This document shows positions 28,053 to 63,915 of a DNA stretch of 64,000 bases, piece by piece. This DNA comes from an uncultured bacterium (GTDB lineage: Bacteria > Babelota > Babeliae > Babelales > Babelaceae): the NCBI GenBank assembly GCA_963819815.1, contig CAWFXL010000001.1, positions 1,248,001-1,312,000 on the forward strand, written 5' to 3'. The position numbers and the translations under genes are program-made. The notes beneath the pieces were generated by a model. It was not told the origin of the DNA, ran no database searches, and worked only from the letters and a program-made list of their open reading frames with translations. Within the stretch, counting starts at the first letter, position 1; each line of letters opens with the position of its first letter.

Positions 28053-28646
28053 ATGAATGCTAAACTATGTGCCTTGCTTTTAACTGTAGCAGCTGTTTCT
28101 TCGACATATTCGATGAATGACGTAAAGGCAATACCTGTTCCACCAACAAGCACCCATCCAAGCGAAAAATCAAATTTTATACTTGAGGATGAAGTAAAAA
28201 AGTTATTCTACCAACCTGCGGCCCTGCGAGAGTTGGCCGAGCCAAATAAGAGAGAGCTCTATAGAGCATGTCTGCAGCAAATTATTGAGAACCCTCAAAT
28301 GGTACATCAAGATATGCCCGACGCAATCAAGAAATTTCCTCTTTATGTGGCCATTCTTCACCTAGCTCAAGAACACGTATCCTGGGCTATGATCAGGGCT
28401 TTTGGCCTTGAAAGAGAGAAGAATGCTTTGGTACAAAAAGAAGCGGATCGTAATGTAGAGCGCAGTGTTGTATCGGAGCTAGAAAATGCTTACCAGGCCA
28501 AGTTCGACAAAAAATTGGCGGACTTTCCTAAAGATGCAGAGAATGAGCTCATTATTAGAGCTAGCACTGAAGCTGCTAAGGTGATGCTCAACTTTCTTGT
28601 GTCTATGCCACCGCTGACTTTATTTACAATTCGTGGATCTCATTGA
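28053..28646 (+). CDS. Secreted hypothetical protein, tandem paralog A
   Basis: Signal peptide ending STYS|M; about 76% identical to paralog B by manual count. Confidence 0.85.
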   Translation: MNAKLCALLLTVAAVSSTYSMNDVKAIPVPPTSTHPSEKSNFILEDEVKKLFYQPAALRELAEPNKRELYRACLQQIIENPQMVHQDMPDAIKKFPLYVAILHLAQEHVSWAMIRAFGLEREKNALVQKEADRNVERSVVSELENAYQAKFDKKLADFPKDAENELIIRASTEAAKVMLNFLVSMPPLTLFTIRGSH

Positions 28647-28822
28647 TGGGTTAACGGGGAAACGATTTTTCGAAAGTTTGACTATCATGGGTTTGATTAG
28701 ATCTTTGCTTTGCCCTTTCCAATCCCATTGTACAATTTGACAATAAAGTTACTAGTGATACATCTATAGAAGTATTATGTGAATAATAATGGCTTTTACC
28801 TCAATACCGGAAAGAACGGTCT

Positions 28823-29416
28823 ATGAATACTAACATATGCGCATTGTTTTTAAGTATAGCAGTTGCTTCTTCGACATACTCGATGAATGACTTGAAAACG
28901 ATGCCTGTTCCACCAACGAGCACTCATCCAGCTGAACAATCCAATTTTACACTGGAGAACGAAGTAAGACAATTATTCTGCCAACATGCGGCGCTTGAAG
29001 AGTTGGCGAAGCCAAAGATGAGAGAGCTTTATAAAGCATGTCTGCAGCAAATTATCGAGAACCCTGCAATGGTTCATCAAGATATGCCCGACGCAATCAA
29101 GAAGTTTCCTCTTTATGTCGCCATTCTTCGCCTAGCTCAAGAACATGTAAGCTGGGCTATGATCAGGGCTTTTGGTCTTGAAAGAGAGAAGAATGAGTTG
29201 AGGCAAAAAGAAGCGGATCCTAGTGTAGAACGCAGTGTTGTAAGGGAACTAGAAAATGCTTACCAGGCCAAGTTCTCACAAAAATTGGAAGAGTTTCCTG
29301 AAGATGCAAAGAGTGAACTCGCTATTAGAGCTAGTACTGAAGCTGCGAAGAAGATGCTCGACTTTCTTGTGTCTATGCCTCCTCTAACGTTGGTACGAGT
29401 TCCTAGCTCTAACTAA
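28823..29416 (+). CDS. Secreted hypothetical protein, tandem paralog B
   Basis: Same length (197 aa); upstream TTGACA-containing region also duplicated. Confidence 0.85.
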   Translation: MNTNICALFLSIAVASSTYSMNDLKTMPVPPTSTHPAEQSNFTLENEVRQLFCQHAALEELAKPKMRELYKACLQQIIENPAMVHQDMPDAIKKFPLYVAILRLAQEHVSWAMIRAFGLEREKNELRQKEADPSVERSVVRELENAYQAKFSQKLEEFPEDAKSELAIRASTEAAKKMLDFLVSMPPLTLVRVPSSN

Positions 29417-61596: not shown

Positions 61597-61971
61597 GCTC
61601 AGCAAGCTCTGTAAAAAAGATATCTGCTGGTCATCAAGAAAAGACTTGTAATCTAGAGTTAGTAACACCATATAGTCGCTTTTCAACAAGGCAAGTATGA
61701 GGCGTCAAGACCGGAGCCGCACGTGTGGGTTTAGGAGTACTTGAAAGCAGTGACTATTTTCTCACTTAGACTGTACAATCCAATGTCGATTCTGGAACAT
61801 GTGCAGCACATTCAAAAAAGAGACCTATTTAGATTCACGGGTATATGATGCAGGCGTGTTGTATATGCACAAAAAGTTGACGCTACAAAGGACGAGCGCT
61901 ACACTTGCCTTGTGTATGTGTCCTAAGCACTGAAGTTTAGTCGACATTCTTACAAATCAAAGGAGGTTGGG

Positions 61972-63915
61972 ATGTGCGGCCTGATCTTTTGTATCATTAT
62001 TCTCTCAAATAAAATAAAGCAATTTCTTGTAACTCGATCTACAGGTGAGTATTCTGTAACTCCTAGTGTGAAGTCTTATGTCTGTAGCAAACTACACCCA
62101 CTTGTAGGTGTATTCTTGCTTGTTTGCTTACCACTTTCAGGTTCTGCGATGGTGCTCGATAGACAGACACCTCAGAATGAGAATGTTGCGGTAACTACTG
62201 AGCTAGAAGCTAGTGCTGTTCAGTCCAACTATGCGCTTATGCAACCTGTACTCGTAAGTAAACTTGGAGAAGGCGAGCTTAGCGTAGCACATGATGATGC
62301 ATGTTTGGTAGCAAAGTTCTTATTGTATCTTGATCGTGCAGGGGATCGTAAGCATTATCTTCTCGATCCAGTTAAACTACAGAAACTTCTCTACTATGTG
62401 CAAGGGTATGCGTTAGCAATCTATGGCAAAACTCTTTTTGCACAGCAAATGGTTCGTCATAATCATGGTGCCTTAGAGTGGGATGTGTTTCAGCATTTTA
62501 AGGGCCAAAGTTTCATACCAGATGACCAAGTTGCCGCATTAGGATATGATGCAAGTCAATACAATCACGCGTTTAAAGCGCATGTAGGAAGTGTTTTTGA
62601 AATGAAAAAGATGTGTGAAACATGGAAGCTTGTTGAGCAGCATCACCAAGAAGCGCCATACCTTATGGCTCAACAAGGACAAGTAATAAACTCAGATTCC
62701 TTGAGAGCATTTTTTAGTGATCCAAAGGAGGTAATAAAATATTGTGTTGGTCGTTTAATAACAGCAGCAGATAGCTCAGAAATTGCCGAGCTTATCAGAT
62801 ATATGCGAGAGTATATTTCCTATGGTCAGTTTGACAAAAAGCAGCTCTTAGAAATCGAACGTTATCTGTTGAGATCAAAAGATCAACTTGAGCGGGTATA
62901 TGCGCGGTATGAAGCTTCTGCTACGATTGCGTGGCGCGGCCAAACACCGCTGCAGACACTGTTGGGCCATTTCTTTTTTCCAGTACACTGTGAGTATGGT
63001 GCTGAGCCAATAGCTTTACTACAAATACGTGAGCCAATGCAATTAAGAATTGCTCTCTCAGCATCCCATGGGCATATACTTGCGCAATCCTATTGTGTTG
63101 AAATTCTCTCTTTATATGAAACAAATTCCCCCCCTTTTATAGAGGCGGTGGTACGGTATTTTGGAGAGACAGCTGCGAGTACTCATCAACTGTGCCTTGA
63201 AAACCCTTCGGATGGTTCAATGCCTTTTTATCTGTGTGGGCTTTATTGCATGTCTCGTAATAAGCTCAGTGGAGCACTTGCTCATTTTAAAAAAGGATTT
63301 GAGAGGGGAGATCCTTGGTGCAGATACCGCTATATTCTTATGATGCGTAACGCAGAAAAAAAACGGGAAGCGATGGCACGACAACCAAACATCCAAGAGC
63401 GCAAGGCATTAGCTTTAGAAGAATTACTTCAAGCGCGTATACTAGGTGATGTTAGCTTACGCATGGCGCATTATGTAAAGGCCGGTACACAGGGTATGGC
63501 CGAAGGATATCATTCAGCAGCGATTCTTGCCCGCGCACAAGGTGATGCAGTGACTGCTCGAAACTATTTCCTACTTGCAGCAAGAAATCATCTATTAAGC
63601 GACTTTGAAGAAGAAGCTTCAGTTCTGATTTCTCAAAATTGCATCGATAAAGCGAAGGTGGTCTATGAAACTATGGCGAAAGCTGGCGATGAAGCCGGAT
63701 TAATGCGTCTTGCAGCACTCTATATGAGAAATGAATGTATAGATGAAGCAAACAAGTTCTATGAAAAAGCTGGGTTGCGAGGATTGGAACAGATGGTCAT
63801 TAATGCAGTTCCTTGTAGTGAAGAGTTCATTCGATTGTCTGCGCGATGCCACACGTATAAACAAGATAGATTTAATGAACTGTTAACTCTTAGTAAAGGA
63901 GATCGGATCTCATGA
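61972..63915 (+). CDS. Panacea (SocA/DUF4065)-like domain fused to Sel1/TPR-like repeats
   Basis: VAKFLL...KLQKLLYYVQG...LF...HGA...LVEQHHQEAPY; repeats ending FKKGFERGD, YVKAGTQG, FYEKAG; alternative GTG start at 62068 gives a signal peptide. Confidence 0.8.
   Translation: MCGLIFCIIILSNKIKQFLVTRSTGEYSVTPSVKSYVCSKLHPLVGVFLLVCLPLSGSAMVLDRQTPQNENVAVTTELEASAVQSNYALMQPVLVSKLGEGELSVAHDDACLVAKFLLYLDRAGDRKHYLLDPVKLQKLLYYVQGYALAIYGKTLFAQQMVRHNHGALEWDVFQHFKGQSFIPDDQVAALGYDASQYNHAFKAHVGSVFEMKKMCETWKLVEQHHQEAPYLMAQQGQVINSDSLRAFFSDPKEVIKYCVGRLITAADSSEIAELIRYMREYISYGQFDKKQLLEIERYLLRSKDQLERVYARYEASATIAWRGQTPLQTLLGHFFFPVHCEYGAEPIALLQIREPMQLRIALSASHGHILAQSYCVEILSLYETNSPPFIEAVVRYFGETAASTHQLCLENPSDGSMPFYLCGLYCMSRNKLSGALAHFKKGFERGDPWCRYRYILMMRNAEKKREAMARQPNIQERKALALEELLQARILGDVSLRMAHYVKAGTQGMAEGYHSAAILARAQGDAVTARNYFLLAARNHLLSDFEEEASVLISQNCIDKAKVVYETMAKAGDEAGLMRLAALYMRNECIDEANKFYEKAGLRGLEQMVINAVPCSEEFIRLSARCHTYKQDRFNELLTLSKGDRIS

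Follow-up and report, generated by a model that had tools for sequence, protein, structure and literature searches.

The window studied here is a stretch of 64,000 nucleotides (G000:C1:1248001-1312000) from a 1.64-Mb, two-contig genome of the order Babeliales (Dependentiae), 88% complete and called G000 below. It holds eight genes whose products begin with a Sec-type signal peptide (SP) followed, at the predicted cut, by a methionine (Met at position +1). All the cleavage sites in this work are heuristic predictions, obtained with a crude predictor that combines the charge of the n-region, the hydropathy of the h-region, the -3/-1 rule and a distance term, and that ignores the residue at +1. 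The initial annotation had claimed the eight junctions between SP and Met, and the translations, read together with the heuristic sites, bear this out in 8/8 genes: each N-terminus consists of a short polar or basic stretch, an uncharged hydrophobic core and a small-residue c-region, with the Met directly next. The heuristic, blind to +1, ranked the noted site first in six of the eight genes and second in one (28823), and made no call in one (54435), because residue -3 is Met there.

The first two genes (named here by their first coordinate; ↓ marks the cut) lie in tandem on the forward strand. Gene 28053 (28053..28646) encodes an orphan protein of 197 aa with no match in Pfam, in which SP residues 1-20 end in STYS and are followed by Met(+1) at codon 28113-28115 and then by N-D; this site ranked first. 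Its paralogue 28823 (28823..29416), 76% identical and likewise unmatched in Pfam, has the same arrangement (SP residues 1-20, STYS, Met codon 28883-28885, then N), and here the heuristic prefers VASS↓TY over STYS↓MN. On the reverse strand, gene 29688 (29688..31217) encodes an ankyrin-repeat protein of 509 aa (Ank_2, E=4e-23) with SP residues 1-24 ending in QSLA, Met at codon 31143-31145 and then Q; its site ranked first with a score of 6.5, and a Shine-Dalgarno (SD) motif, GAGGAG, precedes the SP start. Two further reverse-strand genes have SPs of residues 1-22: 51957 (51957..52814), a J-like protein of 285 aa with SLHG, Met at codon 52746-52748 and then E, and 52990 (52990..54150), a J-domain protein of 386 aa with SLKA, Met at codon 54082-54084 and then D. 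A database search for relatives of the J-like protein returned only three, too few for a broad alignment. The last three genes are on the forward strand. Gene 54435 (54435..55925), an ankyrin-repeat protein of 496 aa by Pfam, has SP residues 1-18 ending in NMCA, Met at codon 54489-54491 and then N. The MYND-finger protein 60388 (60388..61596; zf-MYND, E=2e-8) probably starts its SP at ATG 60415 and shows PAYS, Met at codon 60502-60504 and then V, a site ranked first. In the SocA/Panacea-domain protein 61972 (61972..63915; SocA_Panacea, E=9e-9), SGSA is followed by Met at codon 62149-62151 and then V; it is uncertain whether the SP begins at ATG 61972 or at GTG 62068, the second of which is the best SP-like start and has no SD motif.

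The domains proposed for these proteins by the initial annotation were recovered for Ank (29688 and 54435), zf-MYND (60388), SocA_Panacea (61972) and DnaJ in 52990 (E=3e-12), whereas the DnaJ match of 51957 stays under the Pfam cut-off (E=8e-4) and Sel1 was unmatched at E<=0.01. Three other exported proteins of the window, 603, 33001 and 57800, had been described as lacking +1 Met, and translations and heuristic sites agree. Five tandem paralogues of the "FGSE" family (window 40123-43384) have SPs of the form MKKHLI…LLGSSSIFG↓SES…, in which +1 is never Met; several have hydrophobic C-terminal tails.

To place these genes in their genome, we screened the 1,450 genes of G000, called with a simple codon-usage model, for N-termini with a positive n-region, an uncharged h-region of at least 8 residues, a short c-region and small residues at -3 and -1. 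In the strict set, which also demands a charge of at least +1, no later membrane span and a polar mature start, and from which lipobox-like cases (19/291) were set apart, +1 is Met in 43/272 non-lipoprotein SPs versus about 5 expected from a Met background of 1.83%. Indeed, Met is the commonest +1 residue, followed by A with 22 and by K, L and S with 21 each (n=272). The loose set comprises 568 SP-like N-termini, 70 of which have Met directly after the top-ranked site, against 10.4 expected. These 70 proteins (the Met class) form 38 BLAST clusters, all the ankyrin proteins merging into one cluster of 27. The signal is also visible without any cleavage rule: the share of Met peaks at 3.5-5.7% at positions +4 to +7 past the end of the h-region and is about 1-2% farther on, and a rule-free count over the junction zone gives 9.1% Met in ANK proteins versus 3.8% in proteins outside the eukaryote-like class, a difference weaker than in the count based on the -3/-1 rule. 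By eye, an SP followed by Met is also present in many ankyrin proteins missed by our filters (C2_12506, C2_13643, C1_499945, C1_507910 and the tandem genes C1_949496-956124).

The same pipeline applied to 100 kb of Escherichia coli K-12 found +1 Met in 0/8 strict and 1/26 loose SPs. Its sites for OmpA (AQA↓AP), Skp (AQA↓AD) and Ivy (AMA↓QD) agree with what we take to be their known cleavage sites. In residue matrices of verified SPs from three datasets, Met accounts for 1.12%, 0.60% and 0.00% at the column taken as P1' (PMC2638155, supplement 2). The enrichment of Met at +1 in G000 is far above chance.

The enrichment extends beyond this genome. Our phylum sample comprises 61 genomes, and all 60 besides G000 belong to the same order. 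From three of them (G005, G011 and G040) we took twenty evenly spaced 20-kb stretches each, and from a fourth (G044) 100 kb only, and passed them through the identical pipeline. Strict SPs with +1 Met numbered 11/77 in G005, from the same genus as G000, 23/65 in G011, from another genus of the family, 27/73 in G040, from another family, and 7/15 in G044, from a third family; a subsample of G000 itself gave 13/76. The share of +1 Met is thus lower in the genus of the window than in the other sampled lineages, covering 35-47% of the SPs in G011, G040 and G044 and 14-47% over the sampled genomes. The pattern first noticed in eight genes is therefore real, although not local to them, being genome-wide in G000 and present in all four relatives. 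Given its share across the three sampled families, +1 Met is an old, order-level rule. Ankyrin content itself varies by family: at E<=1e-10 the Ank_2 matches were 118 in G072, 145 in G073, 2 in G033, 7 in G025 and 0 in G026.

The proteins that carry the Met are mostly eukaryote-like or orphan. Of the 70 Met-class proteins of G000, 66 were scanned with Pfam here, the other four being window genes scanned separately. Among the 66 there are 24 ankyrin proteins (one also with PLD and one also with MYND), 3 WD40 proteins, 2 further MYND proteins (one with Fic) and one each with PP2C, UCH (of the deubiquitinase type), AAA and thioredoxin, together with 28 proteins that have no Pfam family and 2 with sub-threshold matches only. 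Just three look like housekeeping proteins (Amidase_3, a beta-lactamase/PBP-like protein and LPP), and their site calls are weak. On the non-Met side, where 140 of the 246 referenceable SP proteins (247 in all) were scanned, we found 19 ankyrin and 4 WD40 proteins and, among the rest, SLT, LTXXQ and phosphate-type binding proteins, six thioredoxins, an ABC substrate-binding protein, SOD, a multicopper oxidase and PEBP. Classified by phmmer with one ankyrin, one WD40 and one MYND query, 26/70 Met-class versus 25/247 non-Met proteins of G000 belong to these families (odds ratio 5.2, Fisher p=5e-7, with paralogues that are not independent).

The relatives present a similar picture. The Met class of G011 and G040 taken together includes 11 ANK/WD40 proteins by phmmer, and the other 39 are 5 more ankyrin proteins (one with an F-box-like domain), zf-RING_2, HEPN, an EEP nuclease/phosphatase, a sub-threshold DnaJ and 30 orphans. 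Their non-Met SPs (76/78 scanned, two proteins under 50 aa left out) belong to Secretin, Peripla_BP_6, SBP_bac_3, Legionella_OMP, GH18, GH1, GMC oxidoreductases, PEBP, ferritin, histidine phosphatase and a chagasin-type inhibitor, along with some probable false SPs (FtsH, RecJ). These scans show that the Met mark separates host-directed-looking proteins from envelope housekeeping proteins, which almost never carry it. The enrichment check that had been proposed between eukaryote-like and housekeeping proteins, run here with the heuristic, thus ties +1 Met to the eukaryote-like and orphan proteins.

The residue after the Met is also unevenly distributed. Pooling G000, G005, G011 and G040, +2 is D, E, N or Q in 83/131 Met-class SPs (E 33, D 18, Q 17 and N 15) versus 105/383 non-Met SPs, which confirms the trend to Met-Asp/Glu/Asn/Gln seen in the window, and the bulky residues L, F, Y, W or I occupy +2 in 8/131 versus 74/383. 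Because of this preference and of the link to the effector-like class, the motif is usable as the effector predictor suggested by the initial annotation, although not as a universal one, since about half of the SP-bearing ankyrin/WD40 proteins of G000 lack the Met.

As for their type, the Met-class SPs fit the layout of signal peptidase I (type I) by the heuristic. Their median length is 20 residues versus 21 in the others, and -1 is A in 40, G in 15, S in 13 and C in 2 of the 70. At -3, Leu, Val and Ile are favoured over Ala (A in 11/70 versus 82/229 of the other SPs of G000, L in 18/70 versus 27/229), a usage that hints at a slightly different cleavage-site grammar. A lipobox with Cys at +1 does not occur in the Met class, +1 being Met, and neither the Tat motif RRxFL (0/70) nor the type IV prepilin motif G↓F/M-T-L-I-E (0/70) was found in its SPs. 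Gln, the residue favoured in Bacteroidetes, is at +1 in only 18/272 strict SPs of G000. The S26 signal peptidase family PF10502 is above its cut-off at two loci of G000, C2:3420-4133, on the 39.5-kb second contig, and C1:973986-974438. It is present in 61/61 genomes, most having one gene and some (G002, G025, G057, G070, G071, G073 and G075) having tandem duplicates. A second signal peptidase dedicated to the Met class was considered and set aside: two S26 genes occur in G000, whereas the majority of the 61 genomes show one.

The Met is internal to the coding sequence. Of the 70 Met-class genes, 70% have an SD core (GGAG, GAGG or AGGA) 5-18 nt ahead of the SP start, and so do 69% of the 247 other SP genes. 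Before the inner ATG such a core is found in 6% of the Met-class genes, to be compared with 6% before the +1 codon of the non-Met genes and 9% before 6,876 random in-frame ATGs. In the relatives, the SP start is preceded by an SD core in 8/11 (G005), 13/23 (G011) and 17/27 (G040) genes, and the inner ATG in 0/11, 2/23 and 0/27. Among paralogues, the first 18 codons of the SP differ 404, 267 and 444 times at codon positions 1, 2 and 3, respectively (64 non-independent pairs), and all the length changes within the SP alignments are in frame, with no frame-breaking indels; the deficit of changes at codon position 2 and the in-frame length changes fit a translated hydrophobic peptide. On the SD positions and the codon-position pattern we reject that the Met is the real start codon, the alternative raised together with the claim of a Met at the junction, and that claim holds. 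A nucleotide motif around the inner ATG was also rejected, on a by-eye impression only: the -1 codons before the Met vary (gcc, gct, gca, gcg, tca, tcg, gga, ggt, agt). For annotators, this means that a Met after a hydrophobic leader in Dependentiae should not be taken as a start codon.

We then evaluated the conservation of the Met column. In MAFFT alignments of G000 families, the Met is kept in 13-14/18 genes of the ankyrin family that includes 54435, where the preceding residue varies among A, V, G, T and S and the following ones vary too, in 9/16 of a second ankyrin family, in 6/8 of an orphan "SxQA↓M" family and in 3/4 of the J-like family of 51957 and 52990. The residues found in its place are I, V, L and T, all reachable from ATG by a single base change. 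For the family of 28053, SP↓M is kept in the G001 ortholog (79% identity) and in paralogues at 27-33% identity. Three G006 homologues of the Panacea protein 61972, at 30-32% identity, read YLCA↓ME, NVSA↓ME and FLKG↓ME, and five genus homologues of the MYND protein 60388, at 23-35% identity, read TIQA↓ML, SLQS-MV, RLCA↓MD, TAQG↓ML and ASQC↓MS. In the bin below 35% identity, pairwise identity at +1 is 0.30 versus about 0.07-0.20 (mostly about 0.12) at +2 to +10, a noisy comparison in which the predicted sites shift between homologues. Taken together, the alignments show that the Met at the predicted +1 is kept by selection. About 18 tandem ankyrin genes of near-identical architecture occupy G000:C1:936558-966180, most of which read LC(A/V)↓MAAQ or LG(G/A)↓M past the SP; several genes of this array have Val, which is non-canonical for signal peptidase I, directly in front of the kept Met.

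Regarding export, no match to FHIPEP (type III secretion system, T3SS, and flagellar export), VirB4 (type IV, T4SS) or VipB (type VI, T6SS) was found in G000, 88% complete as it is. Since these markers gave no match, host-directed proteins presumably exit via Sec and a secretin-type route. G000 has four secretin loci, three in tandem at C1:1178086-1185459 (open frames of 796, 829 and 942 aa) and a fourth at C1:22164-22663 with an in-frame TGA. Moreover, the window itself contains a cluster resembling a type II secretion system (T2SS) at 9215-15264, 13 kb upstream of the first Met-class gene. It consists of a GspF-like gene (9215-10438) followed by six genes, and its pseudopilin genes (10457-12795) carry prepilin-type leaders (GFTIIEIM, GFTVIEVV). 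Two other features were noted in passing. Two DEAD-box helicase paralogues with similar C-terminal extensions lie 10 kb apart in the window (43975-45630 and 56079-57797). At G000:C1:9826-54275, several predicted proteins (e.g., C1:9826-10686) have Arg/Ala/Pro-rich N-termini unlike the rest of the genome, and the DNA near the start of C1 may be foreign or mis-binned.

The protist parasites of the phylum Dependentiae (TM6) are widespread, and very few of them have been cultured; how their ankyrin, F-box and RING proteins are told from envelope proteins and survive in the host is the question that our observations address. In eukaryotes, most first residues other than Met mark a protein for degradation by N-degron pathways, as does a Met with a bulky hydrophobic residue next to it, and Met-Asp/Glu/Asn/Gln are retained-Met N-termini handled by NatB. 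We tentatively propose, with somewhat less than even confidence, a selected "Met-first" rule for host-directed effectors exported by Sec, which would give them a host-like, degron-silent N-terminus. The precursor is translated from the upstream start with an SP of the Sec/signal-peptidase-I type and would leave through Sec and a secretin-type route, so that the N-terminus reaching the host would be one made by a protease. A cut before Met-Asp/Glu/Asn/Gln would expose an N-terminus like that of an ordinary cytosolic eukaryotic protein, with the Met retained and no bulky hydrophobic residue next to it. No other kind of N-terminus would escape being read as a cleavage product by the host N-degron pathways, and host N-terminal acetylation may act on it as well. 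The conserved Met, the D/E/N/Q at +2, the scarcity of bulky hydrophobic residues there and the carriers themselves, proteins with cytosolic domains (F-box, RING, UCH, ankyrin, J, MYND and PP2C), fit a selected N-terminus of this kind.

Several points weigh against this proposal. About half of the SP-bearing ankyrin/WD40 proteins of G000 have no +1 Met, and many of these have a predicted +1 Y, K, R, Q, N or L, destabilising in eukaryotes, so that either not every such protein needs the Met or these have another destination. Some conserved families have V, T or P before the Met, non-canonical for signal peptidase I, and in those the cut may therefore lie elsewhere. Ala, Ser, Gly and Thr are stabilising as well in the classical Arg/N-end rule, and for this reason Met is not obviously required. 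NatB acts mainly co-translationally, which weakens the literal version in which the effector is acetylated like a host protein. Delivery to the host cytosol is presumed for every member of the Met class, and the class association is just as compatible with a sorting signal.

The other explanations place the role of the Met earlier or deny it one. The inner ATG could be a second or the only start codon, through dual initiation or an annotation artefact, giving a cytoplasmic isoform or leaving an untranslated leader. A Met codon is inherently a possible start and, speculatively, the U-rich sequence coding for the h-region could aid SD-independent initiation, but the SD cores are found at the SP start rather than at the inner ATG (70% versus 6%, with the relatives in agreement), and the peptides encoded upstream show n-regions with K/R, hydrophobic cores and small -3/-1 residues and evolve as coding sequence. 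Moreover, the T3SS, T4SS and T6SS markers searched in G000 yielded no export route for cytoplasmic isoforms, and cytoplasmic housekeeping genes do not appear in the Met class; we give this explanation hardly any credence. Only a little less remote is a fossil start codon, i.e., genes, cytoplasmic or transferred from eukaryotes, that once began here and later gained an upstream SP, leaving the Met as a neutral remnant. That the carriers are eukaryote-like or young orphan genes, that the N, T, S, E and D found at +2 look like common second codons (an impression only) and that the Met is lost by single-base changes to I, V, L or T would all agree with such an origin. However, in families at 25-50% identity no other N-terminal column is kept as well as the Met, the rule spans three families at 35-47% of SPs, and there is no sign of an SP cassette. 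A cassette common to unrelated genes was rejected, the mature parts being unrelated in just 11/136 pairs of SPs at least 60% identical, which look like diverged paralogues. The persistence of the Met column at 25-35% identity while its neighbours change argues that it is not a fossil. We also regard as improbable a mere processing preference, by which signal peptidase I or the Sec step would best handle Met at P1' with an acidic or amide P2' in fast-folding repeat proteins. The order-wide extent of the rule, the somewhat different -3 usage of the Met class and the duplicated S26 peptidases of some genomes (two in G000) are compatible with it. Still, G040, G011 and G044 follow the rule and most genomes have a single S26 gene, the housekeeping substrates of the same peptidase avoid Met, and P1' tolerance is general in the signal peptidases studied so far.

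The main rival of the host-like N-terminus is a sorting mark, in which the free Met-Asp/Glu/Asn/Gln would be read in the periplasm by a receptor or by secretin/T2SS-like machinery, routing the class across the outer membrane while the other Sec substrates stay behind. The same data fit it nearly as well, and we give it a somewhat lower likelihood. It would account for an effector-like Met class next to secretin, porin, binding proteins and thioredoxins that are non-Met, for a motif two residues long (Met plus D/E/N/Q), and for SPs that differ at -3, and the T2SS-like cluster of the window and the four secretin loci of G000 could supply the machinery; position-specific sorting codes read after the cut are, besides, established for lipoproteins. 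On the other hand, the predicted secreted hydrolases (GH18, GH1, lysophospholipase, PLD and clostripain-like) are mostly non-Met, half of the ankyrin proteins do without the mark, no receptor candidate was found, a signal of two residues is very short, and T2SS substrates elsewhere are recognised as folded proteins. The sorting mark and the host-like N-terminus could also be joined in an N-terminal code that is read twice, by a periplasmic sorter similar to an N-recognin, which would pass the proteins to the secretin pathway, and then by the host, which would see a native, degron-silent N-terminus of the NatB type. We find this combination attractive and doubtful. If true, it would introduce a new principle by which effectors are targeted, in a phylum where no injection-system markers were found in the one genome tested, and a one-line sequence rule could then predict the effector repertoire of hundreds of uncultured genomes. 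More generally, Met-Asp/Glu/Asn/Gln at the cut offers a simple predictor of host-directed proteins in metagenome-assembled genomes, and it makes directly testable whether the exposed N-terminal residue decides the fate of Sec-delivered effectors.

Some known systems resemble this one in part. In the sorting codes of lipoproteins (the Lol-avoidance +2 rule and the lipoprotein export signal of Bacteroidetes), residues after the cut decide the compartment; one to four residues directly past the cut suffice. The likeness to the Met class lies there, whereas those codes involve a lipidated Cys(+1) and signal peptidase II, and the proteins described here are soluble and have no lipobox. The dipeptides enriched past the cut (83/131) are exactly those of the NatB class, Met-Asp/Glu/Asn/Gln, but NatB substrates are made on host ribosomes and here bacterial proteins would arrive after translation.

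Within the same phylum, Chromulinavorax destructans has signal sequences in 44% of its coding sequences and 98 ankyrin-repeat proteins, with Sec taken as the export route and a secreted set enriched in ORFans (PMC6561590). It shares with our genomes the SP-bearing ankyrin and orphan proteins and Sec export. In the parts of that account available to us, the words "methionine", "cleavage" and "N-terminal" are absent, and neither +1 Met nor its class specificity is described (PMC6561590). In anthrax lethal factor, a Sec-processed toxin, the N-terminal residues affect potency in host cells (PMC2518864), so there too, as far as the portions consulted tell, a residue exposed by processing influences the fate or potency of an exported protein inside a eukaryotic cell. 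That case concerns a single toxin with engineered N-termini, and the same portions report no Met preference and no genome-wide rule.

A +1 Met rule was not reported, for Dependentiae or elsewhere, in the literature searched, which takes in few subscription journals; the rule and its class specificity appear to be unreported, although we cannot exclude a report. The nearest known phenomenon is the Q-rule of Bacteroidetes, where Gln occupies +1 of signal peptidase I substrates and is cyclised to pyroglutamate (PMC5837995; PMC10653852). In the sections of the Q-rule survey covered here, 13 Chlamydiae and other groups are given Q-values only and methionine is unmentioned (PMC5837995). No enzyme modifying +1 Met is known, and none was sought here. 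From what these sources present, the Q-rule concerns Gln and most of the exported proteins of Bacteroidetes, whereas the rule described here concerns Met, another phylum, 14-47% of the SPs and an effector-like class. In both cases, a lineage-wide rule fixes the +1 residue of Sec/signal peptidase I substrates away from the usual Ala-rich +1, with a proposed role in stabilising the new N-terminus. After the Q-rule, the Met of the Dependentiae adds a second case in which a phylum-level rule governs the residue that signal peptidase exposes.

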